Shown here one piece after another: positions 10,593 through 40,862 of a stretch of DNA of 40,862 nucleotides (within the stretch, counting starts at the first letter, position 1; each line of letters starts with the position of its first letter). The notes below the pieces were generated by a model, which worked only from the letters and a program-made list of their open reading frames with translations, searched no databases and was not told where the DNA came from. The translations under genes and the position numbers were made by a program. Source of the stretch: a virus; IMG/VR virus record IMGVR_UViG_3300029779_000011. One strand, written 5' to 3'.

Positions 10593-11204
10593 TTGAGGAC
10601 AGAAATCATCAAAGTAAAAGGAGACTGGCAAGAAGTTGTAAACGATTGCCGGGCAACTGTAAAAAAGCCGCCTCTTGGGCGCGAACCGAGTGCTGAATGG
10701 AAAAGGGCAATCCTAATCGCAGAGCATGACCCAATCCGAGATATTATCATCAAATTTCGATGGAAAGATATTAAATATTGGGTCGCCATGCACTGGAAGA
10801 CACATATTTGGAGAAGCCGGGTTGATTCCCAGAGAAACGACAGGCAATCGAAGTACGACCGCAATAAGGCACCTCAGGACGCTAGGGTTGATTTTATTGG
10901 GGACCCAAATATTCAAAATCTGATTGATACCATGCGCAAGCGGTTATGCAGTCAGGCAGACCCGGAGACGCGCGCGTATGCCGAGGATTTCAAAACAGCT
11001 CTGCATGAGGTGCAGCCGGAGATCTCGGACGTTCTCGTGCCAAACTGCGTTTATCGGTGCGGCTGCCCGGAAATGCAGACGTGCGGGATGTACGAATGGT
11101 GGCTGAAAGTTCACCCGGACATTGCAAGCACGGACATTCAGAAGCGGTATAACACTTACAACGAACTGTTTTGGAAAGTGAGGGAGAAGCGTGGGAGAAA
11201 GTAA
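10593..11204 (+). CDS. divergent ThyX (Thy1)-like fold protein; function uncertain
   Basis: TTG start behind GGAGGG. By-eye alignment to ThyX matches AEHDPIRDIIIKFRWK to HETPFEHIVFTFHVK and NIQNLIDTMRKR..A..ETRAYA to the C-terminal helices. RHR is replaced by WKTH. Confidence 0.45.
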   Translation: MRTEIIKVKGDWQEVVNDCRATVKKPPLGREPSAEWKRAILIAEHDPIRDIIIKFRWKDIKYWVAMHWKTHIWRSRVDSQRNDRQSKYDRNKAPQDARVDFIGDPNIQNLIDTMRKRLCSQADPETRAYAEDFKTALHEVQPEISDVLVPNCVYRCGCPEMQTCGMYEWWLKVHPDIASTDIQKRYNTYNELFWKVREKRGRK

Positions 11205-11427
11205 GTTAAACGAAATGACGCTTGAAGAATTAAAGAACCATATGGACACAATCACAGGACGCCTTAAAAATGAATGGGTGAAGCTCACGATGGTCGAATC
11301 TTTGAGTAATTCGATTCGAAACGAAATGAACCTGCTTGGGATGCTGGTAGATGCGGAACTGAAGGCTATTGTAAAAATTGAAAAACTGATGAAGGAAAAT
11401 GCAAATGGGAACGATTCTGGCAATTGA
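11191..11427 (+). CDS. coiled-coil hypothetical protein, 78 aa
   Basis: ORF track. GTG start. Heptad-like charged sequence. Confidence 0.5.
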   Translation: MGESKLNEMTLEELKNHMDTITGRLKNEWVKLTMVESLSNSIRNEMNLLGMLVDAELKAIVKIEKLMKENANGNDSGN

Positions 11428-15811: not shown

Positions 15812-17170
15812 ATGAAAACATATCAGGATTTTTTAGAGGTTGCGGAAAAGTCTGACCGGGAACGGATGGAATTTATTTTGTCCGCGATAAATAATCACAA
15901 AGACTCGGATTTATACAAACAGGCGGTTATTGCGAAGGAGTATGACGCGCACCGGAATGTGACAATTGCCAATTTTCAAAAGCTGCTTTATACACTCAAC
16001 GGGAAAGTCATTCCGGACAACTACAGTCCGAACTATAAGCTTCGGAGCAATTTCTTTGCAAATTTCATCACGCAGGAAACGCAGTATTTGCTTGGAAACG
16101 GCGTGACACTGAAAAAAGAGGAAAACAAAGCGAAGTTGGGTGCTGGGTTTGACACACGGCTCCAAGACGCAGCACACGACGCGCTTGTCGGCGGCGTTTC
16201 CTATGGTTTCTGGAATCTCGATCACCTTGAAGTGTTTGATGTGACAGAATTTGTTCCGCTTCTGGATGAGGAAAACGGAGCACTTCGGTCGGGCATTCGT
16301 TTCTGGCAAGTATGCACAAGCAAGCCGCTGCGTGCTACTCTCTTTGAGCCTGACGGATTTACACAGTACATCCGACGGAGCGGGGAAGAAATGATGATTT
16401 TGGAGCCGAAGCGCGGCTATGTGGCTGTGGAAGCGACTTCTGAGATTGACGGGACTGAACTTCTGGCGTATCAGAATTATCCGGGCTTCCCTATTATTCC
16501 CATGTACGGGAACCGCGCAAAGCAGTCTGAACTGGTCGGACAGCGCGAGGCGATTGACTGCTACGATTTGATCAAATCCGGCTTTGCAAATACGGTTGAT
16601 GATGCCTCCGTTATTTACTGGACGATTTCCAATGCCGGTGGCATGGACGAGATCGATATGGCACGGTTCAAAGAGTCCATGCGGCGAATTGGCGTAGGTC
16701 TTGTGGACGATGACGGCGCGAAGGCGGAGGCTCATACGCTCACAATCCCGGTTGAAGCTCGGGAAGCGCTTCTTTCCAGAATCAGCGACGATCTGTACCG
16801 AGATTTTCAGATGTTGGACGTTACAAAACTGCAAGGCGGGCAGAAAACAGCGACGGAGATCAATGCGGCATATCAGTCGATGGATAACAAGGTCGATCAA
16901 TTCGAATACTGCGTAATTGATTTCTTACAGGCGCTTTTCAAAATCGTTGGGATTGAGGATGAGCCATCTTTTACTCGCTCTAAGGTAACAAATCAGCTGG
17001 AACAAACGCAGATGGTGCTTCTTGCGGCAAACTACCTCGATGATGAGACAATTTTGAACAAGCTCCCGTGGCTGACGCAAGAAGAAGCTTCCGAAATCCT
17101 GAAAAGAAAAGCGGCAGAGGATATTGAGCGCAGCTTCGAGCCGCCGGAGATGGTGAACGATGAGACCTGA
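15812..17170 (+). CDS. portal protein (SPP1 gp6-like)
   Basis: 452 aa, directly after terL. The N-terminal region is typical of SPP1-type portals. Confidence 0.88.
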   Translation: MKTYQDFLEVAEKSDRERMEFILSAINNHKDSDLYKQAVIAKEYDAHRNVTIANFQKLLYTLNGKVIPDNYSPNYKLRSNFFANFITQETQYLLGNGVTLKKEENKAKLGAGFDTRLQDAAHDALVGGVSYGFWNLDHLEVFDVTEFVPLLDEENGALRSGIRFWQVCTSKPLRATLFEPDGFTQYIRRSGEEMMILEPKRGYVAVEATSEIDGTELLAYQNYPGFPIIPMYGNRAKQSELVGQREAIDCYDLIKSGFANTVDDASVIYWTISNAGGMDEIDMARFKESMRRIGVGLVDDDGAKAEAHTLTIPVEAREALLSRISDDLYRDFQMLDVTKLQGGQKTATEINAAYQSMDNKVDQFEYCVIDFLQALFKIVGIEDEPSFTRSKVTNQLEQTQMVLLAANYLDDETILNKLPWLTQEEASEILKRKAAEDIERSFEPPEMVNDET

Positions 17171-18869
17171 TAAGGGATACGACCTCACCGAAAAAGAGTT
17201 AAAGGCGCTCGAAAAGCGGATATACGATTCTTACAAAGAAGCGTATGACGGTCTGACGGACATCATTAAGGAGTATTTCGCAAAGTTCGCAGACCGTGAC
17301 GAAGCCGAAAAGGCACGGCTGGACGCTGGCGATATCACCGAGGAACAATACAAGCAATGGCGGCTTGCGCAGATCGGGCGTGGAAAGCGCTTTGAGGCGC
17401 TACGGGATAAGGTCGCAGAGCGCATGACAAATGCAAACGCTGCTGCTGTTGCGTATGTCAACGATGCAACGCCGGGAATTTACAGTTTGAATCGGAATTT
17501 CGCGGCGTACACCATTGAACAAGTGACCGGCGATGTCGGATTTGACTTATGGGACGAACAGACTGTAAAGCGCCTAATTGTGGAACAGCCGGAGCTTATG
17601 CCGTATTACCCGCCGAAAAGAGCGTTAAAGCGCGGAATTGATCTTGCATGGGGCAAAAAGCAGATCACAGCCAGCGTCACAAGCTCCATTTTGCAGGGCA
17701 AGAGCATTAAGCACATGGCAGATGATCTACAATCCAGAATTGTCACCATGAACCGCGATTCCGCTATCCGGACAGCTCGAACGGCAGTCACGGGTGCGCA
17801 GAACGCCGGACGGATGGATTCTTATTTTGCGGCTGAAAAGATGGGGATTAAATGCCGCAAAGAGTGGATGGCGACGCTGGACGGAAGAACGCGCCATTCT
17901 CACGCGATGCTCGATGGTGAAGTCGTGGATAACGACAAGAAGTTTTCTAATGGTTGCCGATTCCCGGGAGACCCGCAAGGCAGACCGGAAGAAATATACA
18001 ACTGCCGCTGTACGTTGGTATCTGTGATAGAGGGAATTGGCACTTCCAGAGGACAGCGCCGAGCCAGAAATCCTGAGACAGGGCAAAATGAGCTTATTGA
18101 AAATATGACATACGCAGAGTGGGCGGGGTGGAAAAAGCGTGTGAAAAAGCCTAATTTTGCCCCTGCGGGAACGATCGATGAAGCGGAAAAATACGCGGAA
18201 ATGTTCGTTGAAAGTTACAAGAGCAAATATACAGGGAAAGTTGATTATCGTGGAATCGACATCGCACATGCAAATGAAATGAACAGGGCGTTGACAGAAG
18301 TTCTTGGCGAGTATGAAGTTGACTATAAACTTCGGAATATAACTCCGTTTAATACAAGAGAAAAACGCTTCAAAGATACAACGGCGGAAGCGGCGTATCA
18401 ATGGGGAACCGGAGATTTGTTCTTCAACAAAAAATACCTTAAAAATGCAAAAGCGATGGCAGACCACATAAAGGAATACACAGATTTGCTTAATCAGGTA
18501 TTACCAAACATTGATGTGGCAATGGAGCAAACCAAGAAAAAAACGGGCATAGCGGCAGAGCTTCAAATGCGTTATCTTAAAGCGCTAAAGAAAACGGGCA
18601 GGACAAATGTTAGCAAACCTGATGCCTATGGCTCAATGGTTCACGAGCTAGGGCATTACTTAGACGATAGGTTGTTCACAAAAGCTGTGAAAGAATCTGG
18701 GTTCAATATGGCGAGCAGTTTTTCAAAATATGCCGAAAATGTTTCCGCATACGCTACAAGCAACAGGCAAGAATACGTTGCAGAGAGCTTCACGGCATAT
18801 TGGTTTGGGGAAACAAGCGAGTTAGACCCAGAACTTGTGAAAATCTTTGAAAGGCTTAAGAAAAAATGA
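17160..18869 (+). CDS. minor head protein (SPP1 gp7 / Mu F-like) fused to a C-terminal HExxH zincin-like domain
   Basis: MuF motif LDGRTRHSHAMLDGEVV...NCRCTL. HELGH lies at 18642-18656 and EYVAESF at 18771-18791. Confidence 0.85.
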   Translation: MRPDKGYDLTEKELKALEKRIYDSYKEAYDGLTDIIKEYFAKFADRDEAEKARLDAGDITEEQYKQWRLAQIGRGKRFEALRDKVAERMTNANAAAVAYVNDATPGIYSLNRNFAAYTIEQVTGDVGFDLWDEQTVKRLIVEQPELMPYYPPKRALKRGIDLAWGKKQITASVTSSILQGKSIKHMADDLQSRIVTMNRDSAIRTARTAVTGAQNAGRMDSYFAAEKMGIKCRKEWMATLDGRTRHSHAMLDGEVVDNDKKFSNGCRFPGDPQGRPEEIYNCRCTLVSVIEGIGTSRGQRRARNPETGQNELIENMTYAEWAGWKKRVKKPNFAPAGTIDEAEKYAEMFVESYKSKYTGKVDYRGIDIAHANEMNRALTEVLGEYEVDYKLRNITPFNTREKRFKDTTAEAAYQWGTGDLFFNKKYLKNAKAMADHIKEYTDLLNQVLPNIDVAMEQTKKKTGIAAELQMRYLKALKKTGRTNVSKPDAYGSMVHELGHYLDDRLFTKAVKESGFNMASSFSKYAENVSAYATSNRQEYVAESFTAYWFGETSELDPELVKIFERLKKK

Positions 18870-32956: not shown

Positions 32957-33208
32957 ATGGCGGACGGGCAGAAAAAGCCGCAGCGGAAGACGAAGGGGCG
33001 CATGGCGCGGGAGCTGGTCTACTACTGCATTTACGCCCTGACGCTTACGCTCGCGTGGGCAGTGGTCATCAAGACGGTTGCGGTCATCCTCGACCGCCCG
33101 TCCGACCTCTCCGACGTGCTGATCTTCGCGGCGGCGTCGTTCGGCGGGGAGCTGCTGCTCCTGCTGTGCAAGAGAGTATTTGCGAAACCAAATGAACCGG
33201 TAGAATGA
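32957..33208 (+). CDS. holin-like membrane protein (2 TM)
   Basis: Basic N-terminus followed by two hydrophobic helices. Confidence 0.5.
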   Translation: MADGQKKPQRKTKGRMARELVYYCIYALTLTLAWAVVIKTVAVILDRPSDLSDVLIFAAASFGGELLLLLCKRVFAKPNEPVE

Positions 33209-33219
33209 AAGGGGTACAT

Positions 33220-33444
33220 ATGGATAATATCAAAAAGCGGCTGGGAAACCTGCTCAGCGTCAAGAGCCTGGTCACGATGATTCTGACCTGCGTGTTCGCC
33301 TACATGGCAGTCGTGGGCAAAATCTCGCAGGACTTTATGACCATTTATGCGGTCATCATTGCGTTTTATTTTGGAACCCAGTCCCAGAAGACGCAGGATG
33401 TGCTGGACAGTGCGGGCACGCCGCAGGAGGGCGAAAAGAAATGA
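33220..33444 (+). CDS. holin (2 TM, charged C-terminus); start 33205 or 33220
   Basis: SLVTMILTCVFAYMAVVG and IYAVIIAFYFG helices. Directly upstream of the endolysin. Confidence 0.6.
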   Translation: MDNIKKRLGNLLSVKSLVTMILTCVFAYMAVVGKISQDFMTIYAVIIAFYFGTQSQKTQDVLDSAGTPQEGEKK

Positions 33445-34133
33445 TGAAAGCATCCGAGCTTGTGCGCAGGCACATTGACGTTGCGAAGAATTACAAGACC
33501 GTCTACATGTGGGGCTGCTTCGGCTCCCCCGTGAGCGAAACGATCATTGACGAGAAATCCGCACAGTACCCGGACTGGTACACCGGCGGCAGAGTCACAT
33601 ATCTGCGCAGCCTCATCGGGAAGATCGTCTATGGCTTTGACTGCGTAAACCTGACAAAGGGCATTCTCTGGGGCTGGAACGGCAACAAAAACGCCTACTA
33701 CGGCGGTGCAAGATACGCCTCGAACAGCGTTCCGGATGTCTCCGCCGACGGCATGATCGCAAAGTGCAAGGACGTGTCAACGACCGGCTGGGACAAGCTG
33801 ATTCCCGGCGAAGGTCTCTGGATGCCCGGGCACTGGGGCATGTACATCGGTGACGGTCTGGCGGTCGAATGCACCCCGATCTGGGACAACGGCGTGCAGA
33901 TTACCGCTGTGCAGAACATCGGCACGAAAGCAGGCTACCACGCCCGCAAGTGGCAGAAGCACGGAAAGCTCCCGTGGGTGGAATACGATACCGTAAAGGT
34001 CGACGCCGAGGTTGAAGAAGCAAAGAAGACCATCCGGCAGAAAGCCGGTCTTACAGACAGCACGATCGATTACCTCGCCGGATACAAGTACGGTGACGAT
34101 CTTCTCAAAAAGCTCGCAGCAGCGATGAAGTAA
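33441..34133 (+). CDS. endolysin, NlpC/P60-like cysteine peptidase
   Basis: GFDCVNLTKG (catalytic Cys context) and GHWGMYIGDGLAVEC (His context). Confidence 0.65.
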   Translation: MMKASELVRRHIDVAKNYKTVYMWGCFGSPVSETIIDEKSAQYPDWYTGGRVTYLRSLIGKIVYGFDCVNLTKGILWGWNGNKNAYYGGARYASNSVPDVSADGMIAKCKDVSTTGWDKLIPGEGLWMPGHWGMYIGDGLAVECTPIWDNGVQITAVQNIGTKAGYHARKWQKHGKLPWVEYDTVKVDAEVEEAKKTIRQKAGLTDSTIDYLAGYKYGDDLLKKLAAAMK

Positions 34134-34145
34134 GGTGGTGTTATT

Positions 34146-34394
34146 ATGGCACCGCAGGCGCGGGCAAAACTCCCGCCAGAGCTTGGCGGTTTGACTAGAA
34201 AAGACATGGAAACCGTTATCTATCAGGCAAATCTAGGGAGAGAGAACGCGAAAATCGCGCAACTGTATTTTGTGGATAAGTTACCACAGGTAGATGTTGC
34301 GACGGAGCTGTATCTTGGACGCGCTACGGTGCAACGCCGCCTGCCGGGCATCGTGCGGGAGATGCAGCGCACATCCAGCAAATTGTATAGTTGA
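34146..34394 (+). CDS. stand-alone sigma-70 region-4-like HTH protein, 82 aa
   Basis: AKIAQLYFVDKLPQVDVATELYLGRATVQRRLPGIVREM fits the region-4 pattern. Confidence 0.5.
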   Translation: MAPQARAKLPPELGGLTRKDMETVIYQANLGRENAKIAQLYFVDKLPQVDVATELYLGRATVQRRLPGIVREMQRTSSKLYS

Positions 34395-34395
34395 T

Positions 34396-34427
34396 ATAAG
34401 CGCCGATTTCTCGGCGCTTATTTTTTA
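34396..34427 (+). terminator. rho-independent terminator of the late operon
   Basis: ATAAGCGCCGA-tttc-TCGGCGCTTAT followed by a T-run. Confidence 0.85.
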
Positions 34428-34446
34428 TAAAAATTTTGAAAAGCCC

Positions 34447-34475
34447 TTGACATATACGGTAATACAGTATATAAT
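34447..34475 (+). promoter_or_regulatory. consensus sigma-A promoter TTGACA-17-TATAAT with internal inverted repeat ATATAC-N9-GTATAT
   Basis: Hexamers and spacing read directly. The inverted repeat spans 34452-34472. Confidence 0.8.
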
Positions 34476-34531
34476 AAGGTCATAGAGACAAACCAAAACA
34501 AATACGACAATATATTTTGGAGGTAATTATA

Positions 34532-34912
34532 ATGCTTAATATTGTTTCGGCGTGGGGTGTACCGACAAACCCCGCCTATAACCCCGATACCGCGAACAAC
34601 GGCGGCGGGTATTGGCAGTTCTCAGGAGGCATTGTCGCCGATCTCGACGGTCAGACCGTCACCGTCGAGGTCGACGACACCTCCTGCGGCGATTTTGGCA
34701 GCCGCGTCTATTACGACGTGGCAGCCGATGGATACCGATGGTGGGTATCCGACGGCTCGATGGACGATGCGTCCATCGATGCTCCGGAAGATGTGGACGC
34801 GGTTTTGGCGTCCATCTCCGGTGTCCTGGGCGTGGACGCCGAAGCACTGATCTCAGCCGCGCGAGATGCTGCGAGCATCTGCGCGTGGGAGGGTGTGTGG
34901 AATGCCCACTGA
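34532..34912 (+). CDS. acidic lysine-free protein, 126 aa
   Basis: ATG behind GGAGG. Hand count gives about 20 Asp/Glu, 3 Arg and 0 Lys. The gene is locally GC-rich. Confidence 0.65.
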   Translation: MLNIVSAWGVPTNPAYNPDTANNGGGYWQFSGGIVADLDGQTVTVEVDDTSCGDFGSRVYYDVAADGYRWWVSDGSMDDASIDAPEDVDAVLASISGVLGVDAEALISAARDAASICAWEGVWNAH

Positions 34913-35084
34913 CGCGCAAAAGCGCACCCGCAACAAGTGGGACGCCGAGAACATGTCCGTGATCTCCTGCAAGCTCAAGCGGGAGATCGCGGAAACCTTT
35001 AAGGCCGTGGCGAAAGCCAACGGCACGACGCCGAACGAACTGATACGCGGCTGGATTTCTGAATACTTATTCGATCAAAACTGA
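34902..35084 (+). CDS. ribbon-helix-helix (CopG/Arc-like) DNA-binding protein, 60 aa
   Basis: Overlaps the upstream gene by 11 nt. MSVISCKLKREIAETFKAVAKANGTTPNELIRGWISEYL gives a beta-strand-helix-helix pattern. Confidence 0.6.
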   Translation: MPTDAQKRTRNKWDAENMSVISCKLKREIAETFKAVAKANGTTPNELIRGWISEYLFDQN

Positions 35085-35146
35085 TGCACAACTGAAGCAC
35101 AGGAAAATAGTAAAAAGCTCATACTGAACACAAAGGAGTGTTCGGT

Positions 35147-35530
35147 ATGGGCTTTTCTTATTTCAATCCAAACCCGGAAGGGAAACAAGTCGGAGACTGT
35201 ACCGTCCGGGCAATTTCAAAGGCGACGGGCAAGAGCTGGGATGAAACATACGTCGGGCTTTGCCTACAGGGGTTGAAAATGGGCGACATGCCGTCGGCAA
35301 ACAGTGTCTGGGGCGCGTACCTCCGGCAGCAGGGATTTACCCGGAACGTTGTGCCGAACACATGCCCGGACTGCTACACGGTCGCGGAATTTGCAAGAGA
35401 CCATCCGCGCGGCTTGTATGTACTCGCCTTATCAAGCCACGTTGTGTGCGTGGAAAACGGGACAATTTTTGATACATGGAACTCCGAAAACGAGATTCCG
35501 CTGTTCTACTGGGAAAAGGAGGATAAATGA
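35147..35530 (+). CDS. hypothetical protein with Cys/His papain-like signature
   Basis: FNPNPEGKQVGDCTVRAISKATGKSW (Cys) and LSSHVVCVENGTIFDTW (His). Confidence 0.55.
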   Translation: MGFSYFNPNPEGKQVGDCTVRAISKATGKSWDETYVGLCLQGLKMGDMPSANSVWGAYLRQQGFTRNVVPNTCPDCYTVAEFARDHPRGLYVLALSSHVVCVENGTIFDTWNSENEIPLFYWEKEDK

Positions 35531-35997
35531 TGTTCGGACAACAGCCTTATGTGTATCAGCAGCCGATTTACAATCAACCGCCCATGATGCAGGAACCAAT
35601 GATGCGTCCACAGTATCAGCCTGCGCCGTCGATGCAGTATCCGACTCCGCAACCTCAGCCACAGCAGCCGAGCGGTGGACAGTCCATCATATGGGTTCCG
35701 AACGAAAAGGCGGCAAACGAATTTATCGTCGCGCCGAATAACGCCGTCACACTCTGGGACATGAATGCGCCGGTTGTGTATGTGAAGAAAGCCGACGCAA
35801 GCGGTAAACCAGCAATGACAACGTATGACCTTGTAGAGCGCTCTACAGCCCCCGTGAGCCCCACAGCGCCGCAAACAGTTCCTACGGTGGAATACGTGAC
35901 CCGCAAGGACTTTGACGAACTGGCGGCAAAGGTGGCGGCTCTGAGTGTCAAGCCCGTTAGAAAGATGAAGGAGGCAGAAAATGAATCCACTGTTTAA
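35527..35997 (+). CDS. protein with Q/P/M/Y-rich N-terminal low-complexity region
   Basis: ATGA coupling. About the first 50 aa are MMFGQQPYVYQQPIYNQPPMMQEPMMRPQYQPAPSMQYPTPQPQPQQP, followed by a small globular domain. Confidence 0.65.
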   Translation: MMFGQQPYVYQQPIYNQPPMMQEPMMRPQYQPAPSMQYPTPQPQPQQPSGGQSIIWVPNEKAANEFIVAPNNAVTLWDMNAPVVYVKKADASGKPAMTTYDLVERSTAPVSPTAPQTVPTVEYVTRKDFDELAAKVAALSVKPVRKMKEAENESTV

Positions 35998-36196
35998 TGC
36001 ACTCGGCGGCGGGCAAATGCCCGGGGCTATGGGGCAGTTTCAAAATATGGTGCGGCAGTTTCAGCAGTTCAAGCAGAGCTTTCAGGGAGACCCGAAAGCG
36101 GAGGTTGAAAAGCTGGTGCAGTCTGGGAAAATCTCGCAGCAGCAGTTGAACCAGCTACAACAGGCGGCAAGCCAGTTTCAACAGCTTCTTGGATAA
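35981..36196 (+). CDS. Q-rich small protein, 71 aa
   Basis: ATG behind GGAGG. Overlaps the upstream gene. FQQFKQSFQ...QQQLNQLQQAASQFQQLLG. Confidence 0.6.
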   Translation: MNPLFNALGGGQMPGAMGQFQNMVRQFQQFKQSFQGDPKAEVEKLVQSGKISQQQLNQLQQAASQFQQLLG

Positions 36197-36209
36197 TTAA
36201 GATTTCAAT

Positions 36210-36221
36210 TCGTGCGCACGA
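36210..36221. promoter_or_regulatory. perfect 12-bp palindrome TCGTGCGCACGA
   Basis: Read directly. Lies 38 nt upstream of the 36259 start. Confidence 0.4.
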
Positions 36222-36258
36222 TTGAGATAAATTTCAAAATCTACGAAAGGAGAAAACT

Positions 36259-37056
36259 ATGAGTTTGAATGGCGATGGTATTCCTATGAACATGCCTGTA
36301 GTTCCGGCAAACTCGGACGGCGGAAACGGATGGGGCGGTGGTAATGGCTGGTGGATCATTATCCTGTTCCTCGCGATTTTCTGCGGCTGGGGTAACGGAA
36401 ACGGCTTTGGCAATCGTGGAGGGAACGGTGGCGTTATTGACGGCTATGTTCTGGCATCTGACTTCTCGAACATCGAAAGAAAGATTGACAGCGTGAACAA
36501 TGGTGTCTGCGACGGCTTCTATGCGATGAACACGGGGATGCTTAACGGCTTTGCCGGTGTAACGCAGGCTGTGACTTCCGGCTTCTCGAACGCTGAACTT
36601 TCCCGCTGCAATCAGCAGGCTGCGCTTATGCAGCAGCTGAACAACATGGCGATGCAGGCACAGGAGTGCTGCTGTGAAAACCGCGCTGCAATCGCCCAGG
36701 TGCGCTACGACATGGCGACGCAGGCATGCGACACCCGCAACACCGTGCAGAACAGCACTCGCGACATCATCGACGCGATGAACTGCGGCTTCCGCAGCAT
36801 TGACCAGAGATTGACGGCGCAGGAACTGGCTGCAAAGGACGCGAAGATTGCCGAGCAGAACCAGCAGCTCTTTGCGGCGCAGCTGGCGGCTTCTCAGGCG
36901 GCGCAGAACGACACGCTCAAGTCCTATGTGAGCGGGCAGTTGGCGTATTATAACCCGCGTCCGGTTCCGTCTTTTGCGGTTCCTGCTCCTTACCAGTTCG
37001 CTGGCTGTAACGGCTATAACGGCGGTTACAACTACGGCTGCGGCAACTGCGCTTAA
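36259..37056 (+). CDS. Gly/Asn/Trp-rich, Cys-rich single-pass membrane protein, 265 aa
   Basis: ATG behind AAAGGAGAA. GGNGWGGGNGWW-IIILFLAIFCGW-GNGNGFGNRGGNGG, an ECCCE motif, and the C-terminus GCNGYNGGYNYGCGNCA. Confidence 0.7.
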   Translation: MSLNGDGIPMNMPVVPANSDGGNGWGGGNGWWIIILFLAIFCGWGNGNGFGNRGGNGGVIDGYVLASDFSNIERKIDSVNNGVCDGFYAMNTGMLNGFAGVTQAVTSGFSNAELSRCNQQAALMQQLNNMAMQAQECCCENRAAIAQVRYDMATQACDTRNTVQNSTRDIIDAMNCGFRSIDQRLTAQELAAKDAKIAEQNQQLFAAQLAASQAAQNDTLKSYVSGQLAYYNPRPVPSFAVPAPYQFAGCNGYNGGYNYGCGNCA

Positions 37057-37124
37057 CTCCATAACGTAGAGCTTTTTCGTGGACTCACGAAAATGATCGG
37101 TTCCTTGCCGATACTCAAGAAACG

Positions 37125-37154
37125 CGGCGGGGCAATCGTCCCGCCGTTATTTTT
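37125..37154 (+). terminator. rho-independent terminator
   Basis: CGGCGGG-gcaatcgt-CCCGCCG followed by TTATTTTT. Confidence 0.7.
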
Positions 37155-37160
37155 AACCGT

Positions 37161-37172
37161 GTCGAATTCGAC
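37161..37172. promoter_or_regulatory. perfect 12-bp palindrome GTCGAATTCGAC
   Basis: Read directly. Lies 23 nt upstream of the 37195 start. Confidence 0.4.
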
Positions 37173-37194
37173 GCATTTAGAAAGGAATGATTTT

Positions 37195-37617
37195 ATGGCA
37201 GAATTTACGAATGTAAACATTCAGACAATTGCCGCCGGGCAGAATGTGCCTCTGACGGAAACGGCGATCAGCAGCAAGCCGTGCATTGTGCATCGAGAGG
37301 GAAGTGGGCTTGTGACGCTTCGCGGGCTGACAAACCAGTGCAAGGCGGTTTTCAAAATTTCCTACGGCGGCAACATTGCCATCCCAACCGGAGGAACCGT
37401 CGAAGCAATCACGGCGGCGCTCGCGATCAATGGGGAAGCCATCGCAAGTGCGACGGCGACCGTGACTCCGGCGGCAGTTGAAAACTATTTCAACGTTTAT
37501 GTTTCGGCACAGATTTCTGTTCCGAAGGGCTGCTGTGTGACGGTTGGTATGAGAAACACAAGCACGCAGGCTATCAATTTCGCTAACAGCAATCTGACGA
37601 TTGAGAGAGTGGCATGA
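37195..37617 (+). CDS. all-beta protein resembling BclA-C-terminal / C1q-TNF jelly roll, 140 aa
   Basis: Internal ATG of the track ORF. The alternating-beta pattern, including VFKISYGGNI...ALAINGEAI...VTVGMRNTS...NLTIERVA, recalls BclA-CTD-like proteins. Confidence 0.6.
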   Translation: MAEFTNVNIQTIAAGQNVPLTETAISSKPCIVHREGSGLVTLRGLTNQCKAVFKISYGGNIAIPTGGTVEAITAALAINGEAIASATATVTPAAVENYFNVYVSAQISVPKGCCVTVGMRNTSTQAINFANSNLTIERVA

Positions 37618-37631
37618 AAGGAGGATGCAAT

Positions 37632-38003
37632 ATGTACGATTTAAGAAATCTCCGTGAAATGCTCTGCAAAGAGCTGGACGAAATCGCCGACAAGCGCGAA
37701 ATGTCCGCCGGTGACTTGGACGCAATCCAGAAGCTGACGAGTTCCATCAAGAACACCTACAAAATCGAAATGCTTGAGGACGGCGGCTATTCCCGAGATG
37801 GTGAGTGGGAATCCGATATGCGCGGCACGTATGGGCGCGGCAGCTCCTACCGTGGCAGGCATCGCGATTCTATGGGGCGATACAGCCGGACAGATGCTCG
37901 GGAGCATATGCGCTCGACGCTGGAAGACATGATGCACGACGCGGACGATGATAAAACGCGCGAGGCTATCCGGCGCTGCATGGAGCAGATTGACAGAGCA
38001 TAA
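37632..38003 (+). CDS. charged helical hypothetical protein with RGSSYRGRHRDSMGRYSR tract
   Basis: ATG 6 nt after AAAGGAGGA. An alternative coupled start lies at 37614. Confidence 0.6.
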   Translation: MYDLRNLREMLCKELDEIADKREMSAGDLDAIQKLTSSIKNTYKIEMLEDGGYSRDGEWESDMRGTYGRGSSYRGRHRDSMGRYSRTDAREHMRSTLEDMMHDADDDKTREAIRRCMEQIDRA

Positions 38004-38015
38004 GGAGGGAAAGAC

Positions 38016-38360
38016 ATGCTGGATGAAGCCGAAATCCGAAAGGAAATAGCACGGCTGGAATACGAAGAATCCAGCTATCCCAATTATGCCAAGCTGGCGA
38101 ACCTATATGTGATACGCGACAAGATGCAGGGAGCGGAGAATGCCAGAGATAAGTTTGTGGGTTACTACTCTGGCGCTCCCGCCCCTGTGACCGCAGAACC
38201 GGCTACCGTGGGCGAGTACGGGGACAGTGAGTTTTTGCTTGCAGTAGCTGGGAAAGACCCGGCGAAGGCTTGGGCGGTCGTTGATGAACTCATGGATACA
38301 CTGGCGATGGTAAACAGCAAGGTCTATAACTCTGTTATGCGGAAAATCAAAGGCATATAG
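38016..38360 (+). CDS. hypothetical protein, 114 aa
   Basis: ATG behind AAGGAGGGA. Last gene before attP. Confidence 0.6.
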   Translation: MLDEAEIRKEIARLEYEESSYPNYAKLANLYVIRDKMQGAENARDKFVGYYSGAPAPVTAEPATVGEYGDSEFLLAVAGKDPAKAWAVVDELMDTLAMVNSKVYNSVMRKIKGI

Positions 38361-38372
38361 CGTGTTGCGTTG

Positions 38373-38393
38373 TATGTTACATTATATGCTACA
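38373..38393 (+). repeat. arm-type repeat pair TATGTTACA-tta-TATGCTACA (left of the att core)
   Basis: The same two 9-mers occur in swapped order at 38623..38643. ATGCCGA also flanks both pairs. Confidence 0.6.
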
Positions 38394-38428
38394 ATGCCGA
38401 TTTTTCCTTGATATTTCAATGGGTTTGC

Positions 38429-38493
38429 CTCCCCTGCTAAGGGAGTAGTCGTCTAAAAAGCGAGCGAGAGTTCGAATCTCTCCTTCCGCGCCA
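38429..38493 (+). other. attP core: 3' portion of a tRNA-Ser(GCU)-like gene (anticodon arm to CCA); not a complete tRNA
   Basis: CTCCC-cuGCUaa-GGGAG anticodon arm, long variable region, GAGAG-ttcgaat-CTCTC T-arm, then CTTCCGC-G-CCA. No matching 5' acceptor or D-arm lies upstream. Confidence 0.6.
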
Positions 38494-38540
38494 AAGTACC
38501 GATTTTAGCAAAATTCAAGCTAAAATCGGTACTTTTTTGT
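38494..38540 (+). terminator. rho-independent terminator (14-bp stem)
   Basis: AAGTACCGATTTTA-gcaaaattcaagc-TAAAATCGGTACTT followed by a T-run. Confidence 0.75.
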
Positions 38541-38622
38541 TTTAAATACTCCACTTTTTATAATGTTTTGAAATTACAAAAATCACGCTGAGTTATGCCG
38601 AATAACATAAAGTTACGATGTG

Positions 38623-38643
38623 TATGCTACATCGTATGTTACA
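38623..38643 (+). repeat. arm-type repeat pair TATGCTACA-tcg-TATGTTACA (right of the att core)
   Basis: Mirror-ordered copy of 38373..38393. Overlaps the integrase stop codon. Confidence 0.6.
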
Positions 38644-39772
38644 AACTGCCGGTTATGGCAGGGGACTCCCTCGTTTTTTCGTCCCCTTGCAGCTGGTTTA
38701 CCGCGTCTACCATCCCACGCATATCTGGATGAACATATCTCTGCGTCGTCGTTATTTTTGTGTGTCGCATGATCTCTTTGATAGTAAACAAGTCTATGTT
38801 TTTTATGGCAAGCGCTGTGGCGGTTGTATGGCGGCACGAGTACGGCGGGAGTTTCCGCGCACCGGCTAGTTCCAAGCACTCATAGTATCGCTTGTAAAAG
38901 TTGTCTTTGTTTATGCAGCAGACGTTCCCGACTTTGGACTTACTTTCTTCACAGAGTTCACGCAGCACGGGTGCGACGAAGTCTGGGAAGACCATAGGCG
39001 TTTCTTTCCGCTTCTTTGTTTTTATGCCGCCCCGGACGATCTCGTTTTTCTCAAAGTCAATCATATCCTTCTTGAGCTTCAGCAATTCTCCCGGCATCAT
39101 GCCTGTATAGATCATCGTGAGGATAAAACCGACAAAATGATCTTTTGCATACGCTTCCCATAGTTTTTTGACGTCGGCGTCGGTAAACGGCTCCGGCGAT
39201 TTTTCGTCCAGTTCCGGGAGCTTAATATATTCCGCGAGATTGACAGTGGTCTGTTTTTCAGCAATCGCGAGGTTATAGCAGTGTGAAAGGACTGTTTTCA
39301 TGTCCTTCCGCGTGTAATAGGTGCTGGCATTGCGGTCGACAACATCCTGTATCTGTGAGATGGTGAGCGTGTCAATTTCGCAGTCGGCGAGCTCCTTCAT
39401 GCGCTCGAAAGCTTTTTCCGCTGCCCCCTGCCGGTTCGCCGACAAGGACAGGTAATCTCCGCGCAGATACGTCTTGTAGTATGCTCTGAGTGTAGGGCTT
39501 CGCCGCTCTTCTTTCGGCGGGTTGGCGGCATATTGGAGCGCGGCACGCTTTGACGTAAAGCCTCCCTTTGTCTTCATCTTTTGATGGAGCTTGTCGTTTT
39601 CGTCGAGGTACGTCTTTTCAGTCCACCTGGCAGTCCACGTTTTCCCACGCTGGTAGGCGTTTCCTTGCCCGTTCCCGCGTGTCCGGTTTCGATGCGCTTG
39701 CTGCTGTTTCCCACACCAGCAGCAGAACGCCGAGCCGTCAGGAATTTCTTTTTTACACTTGATGCACTCCAT
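38639..39772 (-). CDS. int: tyrosine integrase with N-terminal zinc-ribbon
   Basis: C-terminal RHTTATALA...HTKITTTQRYVH (R-H-R-Y catalytic pattern). N-terminal CIKC...CCWCG. Start chosen behind GGAGG; the track start is 39802. Confidence 0.9.
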   Translation of the reverse strand: MECIKCKKEIPDGSAFCCWCGKQQQAHRNRTRGNGQGNAYQRGKTWTARWTEKTYLDENDKLHQKMKTKGGFTSKRAALQYAANPPKEERRSPTLRAYYKTYLRGDYLSLSANRQGAAEKAFERMKELADCEIDTLTISQIQDVVDRNASTYYTRKDMKTVLSHCYNLAIAEKQTTVNLAEYIKLPELDEKSPEPFTDADVKKLWEAYAKDHFVGFILTMIYTGMMPGELLKLKKDMIDFEKNEIVRGGIKTKKRKETPMVFPDFVAPVLRELCEESKSKVGNVCCINKDNFYKRYYECLELAGARKLPPYSCRHTTATALAIKNIDLFTIKEIMRHTKITTTQRYVHPDMRGMVDAVNQLQGDEKTRESPAITGSL

Positions 39773-40328
39773 GTTTTCCTCCACGTTCTTTTCGAATTGC
39801 ATAGAAAGTAATTGCTGAAGCCAGCGCTGAACCTACAATCAGGGCGATGCACGCCCATGCAGCTACGGACAAATCTCCATCGCGAATGAGACCTGTGTTC
39901 CGAATTTGCGCATCCGTCACAAGGCAGGCAATTAGAGAAAAGGAGAGCAGCATACAAAACAGGGCGAGAACGTAACACATTGTATGTGTAGCCCTTATCT
40001 GTGCGCTCTGCGCGGCTGTTGTTGCCGCCAGCTTGGCGTTTTCGATCTCGACATGATGAATCTGCTCGGTCAGTTCTTCCGGGCTTTCTGCGGGTTTGAC
40101 AAGCCCGCACAACTCATCCAGCGACAGCCCGAGAACGCGGCATAGCGCGGCAGAATTGTACAGTTTCGGGTCTTGCTGTGTTCCTGCGCAGAGCTTCGTC
40201 ACAGCCGATCTGGAAACGCCGGATTCTTCAACAAGCCTATCGATGGTGTAATGCTGATCTTCCTTCGCCCGCTTTATGTTACTCTGATATGCAGAAAGAT
40301 ATGGGGCGAGTTCCTGAATCGCCGACAT
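39753..40328 (-). CDS. membrane-anchored XRE-family HTH regulator
   Basis: N-terminal HTH (YTIDRLVEESGVSRSAVTKLCAG) and two C-terminal TM helices (CYVLALFCMLLSFSLIACL and AAWACIALIVGSALASAITFY). Confidence 0.75.
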   Translation of the reverse strand: MSAIQELAPYLSAYQSNIKRAKEDQHYTIDRLVEESGVSRSAVTKLCAGTQQDPKLYNSAALCRVLGLSLDELCGLVKPAESPEELTEQIHHVEIENAKLAATTAAQSAQIRATHTMCYVLALFCMLLSFSLIACLVTDAQIRNTGLIRDGDLSVAAWACIALIVGSALASAITFYAIRKERGGKHGVHQV

Positions 40329-40446
40329 GATATACCTCCATTTTCACATATATTTCGCTGATTCTTCTGCTATGGGTATGGTTTTACCAATTTGAGGGTG
40401 GACATTTCTGCCCACTTTGCTATGCTGGTTACAGGCGCGTGAGAAA

Positions 40447-40476
40447 GCCCCACCGCCGGGGGAGCGACGGTGGGGC
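40447..40476. terminator. 9-bp GC hairpin GCCCCACCG-N12-CGGTGGGGC
   Basis: Read directly. On the minus strand it is followed by TTTCTC, so it could terminate leftward transcription entering from the junction. Confidence 0.35.
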
Positions 40477-40624
40477 GATCTTAAACATTCCATTATACAA
40501 AATAGTCTGTCCCATAATTGCCGCTTACGAGGGTTACCGGACGAAGAAAATGCAAGGTGTTCTTTGTGGAAGATTCCAAATTGAAATTATCGAACGAACG
40601 TTCTAAAATATGGAGGTACACCAA

Positions 40625-40807
40625 ATGCAGAGCATCAATATTCGCTTTGAAAACGGGAAAGTAAACATCATCGTAGACGGGGCGCTTTTCAAAGACGTCC
40701 ACAGTCTGAGCCTGGACTACATCAAGGGCGCACCTATGCTCTTTGCTTGCGTCTCAGATGTAGGCGAGACACGGGAGAAGTGGAACCAATGCCCGCTGCC
40801 GAACTGA
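40625..40807 (+). CDS. hypothetical protein, 60 aa, spanning into the terminal repeat
   Basis: ATG behind GGAGG (MQSINIRFENGKVNIIVDG...). The antisense 40493..40702 ORF is less convincing. Confidence 0.5.
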   Translation: MQSINIRFENGKVNIIVDGALFKDVHSLSLDYIKGAPMLFACVSDVGETREKWNQCPLPN

Positions 40808-40862
40808 GTCACTTGATTGGCCACGAGTTACCGCAGTTCTGGCAAAGGCAGATCTTCTGGTT
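40740..40862. repeat. terminal direct repeat copy 2 (identical to 1..123)
   Basis: Read directly. Consistent with circular assembly or terminal redundancy. Confidence 0.97.

Follow-up and report, generated by a model that had tools for sequence, protein, structure and literature searches.

The viral genome IMGVR_UViG_3300029779_000011 (IMG/VR; 40,862 nucleotides, below called the window) carries at 35147-38360 a cassette of small genes that was found to be constrained, co-inherited and movable as a unit between genome positions. The cassette consists of a predicted thiol enzyme and six further genes, here numbered 1 to 6. We propose, at a probability of roughly 0.3, that it is an accessory operon, complete in itself, whose products build a cytoplasmic complex tethered to the membrane, with a role at the level of the membrane in the infected cell. 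The operon would comprise a helix-turn-helix (HTH) regulator, an optional thiol enzyme, genes 1-5 and an optional gene 6, and would belong to a very large group of siphophages, hundreds of which carry it, in gut and rumen Clostridia. The features are as follows (aa, amino acids).

34146-34394, plus strand: HTH gene of the sigma-70 region-4 type, 82 aa, likely a dedicated regulator linked to the cassette.
34396-34421, plus strand: intrinsic terminator 3' of the HTH gene, with an 11-bp stem plus a T-run.
35147-35530, plus strand: thiol enzyme 'Cpep', predicted to be papain-like, 127 aa (phrog_3754, E = 5.5e-32).
35527-35997, plus strand: gene 1 (phrog_21718, E = 3.5e-30).
35981-36196, plus strand: gene 2, 71 aa, Gln-rich (phrog_22984, E = 1.1e-21).
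36259-37056, plus strand: gene 3, predicted single-pass membrane protein, 265 aa (phrog_16490, E = 2.9e-49).
37057-37194, plus strand: structured spacer between genes 3 and 4 with four hairpins, including a terminator at 37124-37147.
37195-37617, plus strand: gene 4, 140 aa, predicted jelly roll of the TNF/C1q type (AlphaFold2 model, Foldseek).
37632-38003, plus strand: gene 5, 123 aa (phrog_28802, E = 2.2e-9).
38016-38360, plus strand: gene 6, acidic, 114 aa, optional (weak PHROG match, E = 0.006).

The first-pass annotation of this DNA had described a block of six genes, and all six open reading frames (ORFs) were found where it placed them. The genes are real, but the conserved unit begins one gene earlier, with the thiol enzyme. 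The ORFs of genes 4, 5 and 6 each also open to longer versions with an upstream start. For genes 4 and 5 the shorter starts (37195 and 37632) were preferred because each has a good ribosome-binding site and the homologues of gene 4 mostly have 140 aa; the shorter start of gene 6 (38016) likewise has a good ribosome-binding site. Genes 1-5 match PHROG families of unknown function (E = 5e-56 to 2e-9), and gene 6 does so weakly. In public metagenomes genes 3 and 4 each form more than 7,800 protein clusters at 90% identity, and the thiol enzyme about 7,800 or more. The median ratio of nonsynonymous to synonymous substitution rates (dN/dS) against relatives was 0.04-0.17 across the members, indicating purifying selection. 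Based on the PHROG homologues, the protein clusters and the low dN/dS, the ORFs are genes and not chance reading frames. Scans of all cassette members with Pfam, NCBIfam and PADLOC gave nothing above noise, in line with the initial statement that they match no standard phage module. Profile searches against PDB sequences, made for the thiol enzyme and for genes 1, 3, 4 and 5, likewise stayed at noise level, and Rfam had no match in the window from 33000 to 40862.

In total 258 loci around gene 4 relatives were compared, which fall into three clades: window-like, Dulem-virus-35-like (the head-module clade) and a rumen clade, to which Butyrivibrio phage Ceridwen belongs. With iterative searches the enzyme and genes 1, 2, 3 and 5 were detected in 230-251 of the 258 loci. 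Where enough flank was available, the enzyme and genes 1, 3, 4 and 5 were present in one constant order in at least 180 of 182 loci, and gene 2 in 175; synteny of the enzyme with gene 1 was seen in 180. Gene 6 was present in 55/59 window-clade, 24/54 rumen-clade and 0/69 head-module-clade loci. Co-occurrence as a block, which had been suggested as a check on the six genes, was thus observed, within a larger cassette in which gene 6 is optional. Three genome positions were found. In the window and rumen clades the cassette follows the lysis genes and is itself followed by the integrase or early genes; in about 80 loci, including Dulem virus 35, it lies between the portal/MuF and the scaffold/capsid genes; and in one distant relative (L260; L numbers denote individual loci) it is convergent to the tail genes. 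Order and co-occurrence persist at 29-49% protein identity and through at least three relocations, and adjacent lysis, integrase and tail-tip genes are exchanged while the cassette order stays. Nearby holins, lysins, integrases and a two-gene insert (p131/RHH, see below) vary freely among the relatives. Between the window phage and Ceridwen nothing is shared but the terminase-to-tape-measure genes and the cassette, and Dulem virus 35 has only the capsid/scaffold genes and the cassette in common with the window phage.

Some loci depart from this arrangement. In L207 and L210 the cassette is permuted, with genes 3-4-5 followed by enzyme-1-2. L062 has genes 4-6 only, and in bajarodcaudo virus 5 genes 1-3 are followed by unrelated proteins replacing genes 4-5, and the thiol enzyme is absent. 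The internal terminator had been taken to split the block into 3+3 genes; it is present, and the split gains some comparative backing from L062 and bajarodcaudo virus 5, which hold genes 4-6 and genes 1-3, respectively. The permuted order and the replacement of genes 4-5, together with the optional gene 6 and the occurrence of the thiol enzyme alone in other phages, are what would be expected if the genes had no joint function and were unrelated small accessory genes held together by shared ancestry and tight packing. However, the order survives deep divergence and repeated relocation while the neighbours are swapped, overlapping or near-abutting reading frames run through the cassette and suggest translational coupling, and the regulator is consistently attached; we therefore consider a lack of joint function very improbable.

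Two phages have an endonuclease gene inside the cassette. In Ceridwen it lies between genes 4 and 5 (L001 9518-10312, annotated 'hypothetical'), and in Dulem virus 33 between genes 2 and 3 (L002 7410-7961, minus strand, annotated 'endonuclease'). Both were read as homing-endonuclease-like, and insertions in two different phages suggest that the cassette is a widespread, conserved target. In the head-module clade, L154 has a 56-aa 'Cysteine-rich KTR' zinc-ribbon gene (11075-11245, Pfam E = 2.5e-17) in the gap of about 700 nt from gene 5 to the scaffold gene.

The capsid protein of the window phage is 61% identical to that of Flavonifractor phage Chenonceau, 50% to that of Dorea phage DO134P1 and 36% to that of Ceridwen. 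Chenonceau and DO134P1 were absent among the matches for gene 4, gene 1, gene 3 and the enzyme. As phages with closer capsid proteins are without the cassette, it is accessory and not an obligatory structural module. Ceridwen has been seen to grow only lytically, and its authors regard the phage as virulent and left the cassette genes hypothetical. It has no integrase, all its genes are co-oriented, and its cassette is intact with terminators on both sides, the upstream one at L001 6873-6900. The first-pass annotation had placed the block in a lysogenic-conversion slot, a designation that found no support because the cassette is intact in this integrase-less phage, occupies the MuF-scaffold position in a whole clade and has no conserved sigma-70 promoter. 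A lysogenic-conversion moron has its own host-type promoter and terminator and is confined to temperate phages, which does not describe the cassette. It resembles the Firmicutes prophage morons found between lysis genes and attP in position (in the window and many relatives), in being accessory and in its flanking terminators. However, it consists of seven to eight co-conserved genes and not one or two, it is found in a virulent phage and in a head operon, it lacks a conserved host-type promoter and it is under strong constraint. Its intactness in Ceridwen and the lack of a conserved upstream sigma-70 promoter argue for use in the lytic cycle, and its place in the head operon throughout one clade implies late co-transcription.

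The position next to attP did hold, as the block adjoins the integrase and a tRNA-like attachment-site (att) remnant. By eye, the stretch at about 38425-38493 resembles the 3' part of a tRNA (loop CTGCTAA, T-loop TTCGAAT, CCA end), and it is probably the attP core. A terminator-like hairpin at about 38496-38540, also found by eye, is followed by the integrase at 38639-39802 on the minus strand. ARAGORN found no tRNA in the window and Rfam made no call on the tRNA-like stretch. Vescimonas fastidiosa MM35, a cultured human-gut Oscillospiraceae isolate, has a prophage (L275, NZ_AP023416.1 251813-254547) with genes 1-6, of which gene 4 is 72% identical; RefSeq annotates all its cassette members as hypothetical. 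There, at the border of the prophage, 84 nt separate the end of the cassette from a tRNA-Val gene. Both ends of the window, 1-1508 and 38639-40328, hold lysogeny-type genes on the minus strand, with repressor-like ORFs at the left and the integrase and an XRE-like membrane protein at the right; based on this the window looks like a complete, circularly permuted phage genome and not like an integrated prophage flanked by host DNA. Elsewhere in the window, the MuF-like minor head protein (17160-18869) is long, with 569 aa. Long MuF-like proteins sometimes have C-terminal toxin domains.

In all clades examined, an equivalent small HTH gene immediately precedes either the cassette or gene 1. The window copy matches Sigma70_r4 below the cut-off (E = 0.087, 12.8 against 24.1 bits) and NCBIfam sigma70-ECF at E = 0.005. 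Clearer matches were obtained for the equivalents in bajarodcaudo virus 5 (L274 4611-4847; Sigma70_r4, E = 3.9e-6, 26.7 against 24.1 bits) and in L154 (8181-8381; Sigma70_r4_2, E = 7.7e-6, 25.9 against 25.7 bits). The equivalent in Dulem virus 35 (L098 7457-7600) has a weak match to GerE (E = 0.007), and that of Ceridwen lies at L001 6638-6859. Judging from these matches and its position, the sigma-70 region-4 HTH gene is likely the dedicated regulator of the cassette. It usually has a terminator behind it, in Dulem virus 35 at L098 7618-7649. In the head-module clade small coiled-coil and membrane proteins are encoded between the thiol enzyme and the HTH gene (L098 6776-7373, L154 7780-8169), those of L098 being XhlA-like, and it seems that part of the lysis region relocated along with the cassette.

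A perfect sigma-70 promoter, TTGACA-17-TATAAT, lies at 34447-34475, upstream of the variable insert. The insert follows the terminator and the promoter (34396-35084 with both included), is carried by only some relatives and has two genes, p131, encoding an acidic protein of 127-131 aa (34529-34912), and a gene for a ribbon-helix-helix (RHH) protein (34866-35084). As only some relatives have it, the insert resembles a classical moron placed between the HTH gene and the cassette. A sigma-70 promoter specific to the cassette was considered and dropped, since the promoter at 34447 is that of the insert and has no conserved counterpart in front of the cassette. In relatives without the insert no comparable promoter was found upstream of the cassette. 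The best upstream matches in relatives were mostly 8-9 of 12.

Gene 4 gave an all-beta AlphaFold2 model of high confidence from a diverse alignment of 72 sequences (predicted local distance difference test score, pLDDT, 95.7; predicted template-modelling score, pTM, 0.85). In Foldseek searches against the PDB the top match was the C-terminal domain of F-BclA (9h38; E = 1e-6, template-modelling (TM) score 0.77), followed by ExsFA (7r1m), the complex of ExsF with the F-Anchor leader peptide (9h3d), BxpB (8d02) and BclA (3tyj/1wck). TNF ligands and C1q rank behind these exosporium proteins, for which the Foldseek probability was 1.00, with TM scores of 0.67-0.77 and E = 1e-6 to 2e-5. The likeness to BclA C-terminal and C1q-TNF jelly rolls, already seen in the first reading, is therefore right at the level of the fold. 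It does not extend to sequence families, as no Pfam or NCBIfam match rose beyond noise, a phmmer search of the PDB found no BclA or ExsF, and structural alignments with BclA/ExsF-type proteins had 12-14% identity. Against BFVD the top matches were uncharacterised gut-phage proteins, two of them named 'BclA protein', and many were fibre tips. Gene 4 is a stand-alone protein of about 140 aa which was never fused among the full-length representatives listed (593 clusters at 50% identity); its dN/dS is 0.07, and one variant occurs in 677 blocks of the assembly collection. Gene 4 is presumed to form a trimer.

The exosporium and endospore-appendage proteins of the Bacillus cereus group are among the closest known comparisons. 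Gene 4 shares the fold of ExsFA/BxpB and of the C-terminal domains of BclA and F-BclA (TM score 0.70-0.77), and like ExsFA/BxpB it is a stand-alone domain of about 140 aa without a signal peptide, made in the cytoplasm. The differences are the low identity and the phage setting, which extends to a lytic phage whose host is described as non-sporulating. Exosporium loci have no counterparts of the partners (genes 1, 2, 3, 5 and 6). No collagen GXY repeats and no exosporium leader were found in any cassette protein; the N-termini of genes 1 and 3 are Pro-rich and only loosely like exosporium leaders.

On this likeness the cassette could be read as lysogenic conversion by a prophage, with an assembly at the envelope or, exosporium-like, at the spore surface, made up of an ExsF/BclA-like protein, a Cys-rich protein, Q-rich substrates and a thiol enzyme for cross-linking or processing, under the control of a GerE-like small HTH protein. 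Besides the ranking of gene 4, such a role is favored by the coat- or exosporium-like composition of the products (Cys-rich, Q/P-rich with a weak YppG match at E = 0.64, and R/S/Y-rich), the perfect sigma-70 promoter upstream in this window, the adjoining attP and integrase, a SpoIID gene on the host contig of one relative and the weak GerE match in Dulem virus 35. However, the promoter is part of the variable insert, one whole clade has the cassette in the head operon, and Ceridwen, where the cassette is intact, is a lytic phage whose host, Butyrivibrio fibrisolvens, is described as non-sporulating. No family match to BclA, GerQ, CotZ, YjcZ or Tgl was found, and by eye no conserved sporulation-sigma promoter was seen ahead of genes 3 and 4. 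A single chromosomal 'orphan' trio was examined, in an Oscillospiraceae metagenome-assembled genome (L009); it has a 5'-truncated gene 3 beside housekeeping genes, which marks it as a prophage remnant, and domestication by the host was dropped as an explanation. The spore-surface role suggested in the first-pass annotation is left with an analogy of fold and composition, and we consider lysogenic conversion of this kind quite unlikely.

The fold of gene 4 also occurs in the TNF-like knobs at phage fibre tips, such as the CBD of the cyanophage A-1(L) short tail fibre (8ke9) and the knob of the phi812 central spike (9eul). These knobs share the fold class and are phage-encoded, but they are C-terminal domains of long fibres and usually evolve fast, whereas gene 4 is separate and conserved. 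The cassette may be a virion-associated accessory module of non-essential decoration, head/neck fibre or ejection proteins, with gene 4 as a distal or decorating trimer, gene 3 as a hydrophobic, ejection-type or fibre-shaft protein and the rest as adaptors or chaperones. Such a module would account for the location between portal/MuF and scaffold/capsid genes in about 80 loci, for L261, where the cassette lies directly behind a gene for a 1,268-aa tail protein, and for its retention in the virulent Ceridwen. Many phage fibres are capped by TNF-like jelly rolls, the BFVD matches include tail fibres, the products lack signal peptides as virion proteins do, and optional decoration would suit the patchy distribution. 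Less easily explained are the dedicated HTH regulator and the flanking terminators, which are unusual among structural genes, the cassette convergent to the tail operon in L260, and its absence from phages with closer capsid proteins. Gene 4 does not diversify as receptor-binding tips do, low complexity of the Q/P- and RG/SY-rich kind and a W-flanked transmembrane segment are atypical of virion proteins, and genes 2 and 3 bear no resemblance to the tape measure of this phage. A virion role is possible, and we rank it only slightly below the membrane-level role proposed at the outset, from which the evidence does not separate it.

The membrane tether of the proposed complex would be gene 3. Its layout comprises a hydrophobic segment at about residues 30-44, a helical Cys-rich domain with CCC, a Pro-rich segment and a Gly/Cys-rich C-terminus. 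The transmembrane segment described earlier was found as one hydrophobic stretch, GWWIIILFLAIFCGW, with Gly/Asn/Trp runs on either side, and the ECCCE motif and the Gly/Cys-rich end are present as well; the dozen or so Cys reported are 11, which is also the median of the family. W32, W44, C137-139 (CCC) and C264 are invariant. By hydropathy, gene 3 is the only cassette member with a membrane-spanning segment, and the others have no signal peptide-like or hydrophobic segment. The K+R count averages 0.18 over the 30 aa preceding the hydrophobic segment, against 0.95 over the 30 aa that follow, which weakly suggests that the large Cys-rich domain is cytoplasmic. On the basis of this hydropathy and charge analysis the products would be cytoplasmic with one membrane anchor. 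Gene 3 had no PDB or Pfam match. The resemblance to YjcZ-type sporulation peptides that had been suggested was not borne out, since the protein has 265 aa and no NCBIfam or Pfam match, and the resemblance is one of composition around the hydrophobic segment only.

Between genes 3 and 4, the internal terminator predicted earlier at 37125-37154 was located at 37124-37147 plus a T-run, with a 10-bp stem of which 8 pairs are G-C. The whole spacer folds with a minimum free energy of -50 kcal/mol (z = -4.3) and includes the palindrome GTGTCGAATTCGACGC. Among 26 distinct relatives it hardly varies, even though the synonymous divergence (dS) of the flanking genes is about 1, and hairpins 1 and 2 show compensatory changes. 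Rfam had no match to the spacer. The role of the spacer could be regulatory, or it could serve as a recombination linker joining alleles of genes 3 and 4, which are shuffled independently. In some relatives an extra gene of about 70 aa follows it.

Gene 1 consists of a Q/P/M/Y-rich N-terminal tail, a conserved beta-rich core of about 55 aa (WVxGExxAxxxxVAPNxxVxLxDxxxxxxYxKxxDxSGxP) and a C-terminal amphipathic helix. The low-complexity start reported for it was evident, with 75% Q/P/M/Y in residues 1-52. It had no Pfam or PDB-sequence match, and its dN/dS is 0.12. Gene 2 is Q-rich and overlaps gene 1 as described (25% Gln, 17-nt overlap; dN/dS 0.11). Genes 2 and 3 had weak, sub-threshold matches to tape-measure families, those of gene 2 coming from Q-rich helices. 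As neither is similar to the tape measure of this phage, these matches were treated as coiled-coil or Q-rich bias, and tape-measure mimicry was dropped. Gene 5 has conserved N- and C-terminal segments, presumably helical, around an R/G/S/Y/D-rich low-complexity middle with RDSMGRYS. Genes 5 and 6 had been described as charged helical proteins, with which the composition agrees, gene 5 having 23 K+R and 28 D+E in 123 aa. Gene 5 had no Pfam or PDB match, and its dN/dS of 0.04 is the lowest of the block. Gene 6 has the conserved motif YGDSEF...DELM and a dN/dS of 0.17.

In the thiol enzyme C18, H98 and D109 are invariant among 99 sequences. The AlphaFold2 model (pLDDT 93.7) has the Cys at the start of helix 18-27, the His at strand 99-103 and the Asp at the end of strand 106-109, from which a papain-like layout with the Cys-His-Asp triad in canonical positions is predicted. 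The best Foldseek match, Josephin-2, was weak (E = 0.1, probability 0.72, TM score 0.49), and the other neighbours (USP, PLpro, TssM) had E > 1; no match was found among PDB sequences or in Pfam. The enzyme is like the papain-like (clan CA) enzymes in its invariant triad and in a D-[TS]-W motif that recalls the N-S-W of papain, but with 127 aa it is below most members in size and it has no significant match to solved ones. It could act as a peptidase, an isopeptidase or a transglutaminase. A truncated endolysin was rejected, as the enzyme shows no relation to the C39-like lysin that bajarodcaudo virus 5 encodes. Without the rest of the cassette, the enzyme was found in Bacillus Tsamsa-like phages, Geobacillus GBK2 and Lak megaphages. 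In the Tsamsa-like Bacillus phages (Izhevsk) it lies in the early region among host-takeover genes, adjoining an Ocr-like gene and a kinase.

These neighbours bear on whether the cassette is a multi-gene anti-defence or host-takeover module, in which the enzyme would neutralise host immunity, for example by removing a protein modification, and gene 3 would target a membrane-bound effector. The Ocr-like anti-restriction gene beside the Izhevsk enzyme fits such a module, as do the patchy accessory distribution and the retention in a virulent phage, and the only fold neighbour of the enzyme, Josephin-2, has a papain fold of the deubiquitinase type. That fold match is not significant, however, and in bajarodcaudo virus 5 the rest of the cassette does without the enzyme. 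Anti-defence genes are usually single and fast-evolving, whereas all seven here are strongly constrained, and the jelly-roll trimer and the low-complexity partners are left unexplained. The defence module entertained in the first reading found no PADLOC model match either, gene 3 giving only noise of the coiled-coil type (E ~1e-3). We regard an anti-defence or takeover module as unlikely.

The accessory operon proposed at the outset would work as follows. Its products would be made in the cytoplasm of the infected cell, mainly in lytic growth, and would assemble into a complex held to the inner membrane face by gene 3. The gene 4 trimer would be a docking hub for short Pro-rich or low-complexity peptides of its partners, candidates being 'MPVxP', which is conserved at the N-terminus of gene 3, and the gene 1 tail with 'MAYNNxFP'. 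ExsF trimers bind the exosporium leaders of BclA and F-Anchor in clefts between subunits (PMC12357932), and it is by analogy with ExsF, and because the best matches include ExsFA/BxpB and 9h3d, that gene 4 may be seen as a docking hub. Genes 1, 2 and 5 would contribute small folded domains and low-complexity linkers, and the thiol enzyme would trim or cross-link some component. The most plausible role of the complex would be to control passage across the membrane late in infection, either by excluding the DNA of a superinfecting phage or by setting the timing or completeness of lysis; a change of the lysogen's surface would be less likely. The phage P1 Dar capsid-cargo system and T4 Imm/Sp exclusion are functional analogies only, being non-essential, multi-component, late-made and lytic.

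Several points weigh against this operon as proposed. The complex and the docking contacts among its products are ones that we infer, and the topology of gene 3 is read from a weak positive-inside signal. A role in the virion would fit equally well with the location inside the head operon, seen in about 80 loci, and with a fold like that of fibre tips. Pfam, NCBIfam and PADLOC gave no link of the cassette to exclusion, lysis-control or defence families. The thiol enzyme has no significant structural neighbour, and since bajarodcaudo virus 5 lacks it, its function may be separate. The conserved order could in part stem from shared ancestry and not from physical interaction.

The same parts could also form a portable self-assembling 'coat-like' system, that is, a covalently stabilised protein layer or compartment located at the infected cell's membrane, on spores or on virions. 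Gene 4 would then be an ExsF-like hub and gene 3 a Cys-rich anchor, the Gln/Pro- and Arg/Ser/Tyr-rich genes 1, 2 and 5 would be the building blocks, and the thiol enzyme, for cross-linking or processing, and the sigma-4-type regulator would complete the system. We hold this to be improbable. If true, it would be a viral counterpart of exosporium assembly, and possibly an evolutionary source or sink of BclA/ExsF-type proteins.

With regard to novelty, full-text searches of the literature for phage-encoded BclA-, exosporium- or C1q-like proteins yielded nothing on such a cassette. It fits no known system; only gene 4, through its fold superfamily, and the enzyme, through its fold class, have recognisable relatives. 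We therefore rated the cassette as a new kind of phage accessory system, a rating that reflects the absence of matches and not a demonstrated mechanism. No member has a name, a Pfam family or a published function, despite their abundance. Cultivable systems are at hand in Ceridwen on B. fibrisolvens DSM 3071 and in the prophage of Vescimonas fastidiosa MM35. Knowing what the cassette does would make sense of a conserved part of a phage lineage that is among the commonest in human and ruminant gut Clostridia, and would show what role a jelly roll of the spore-surface type has in a virus.

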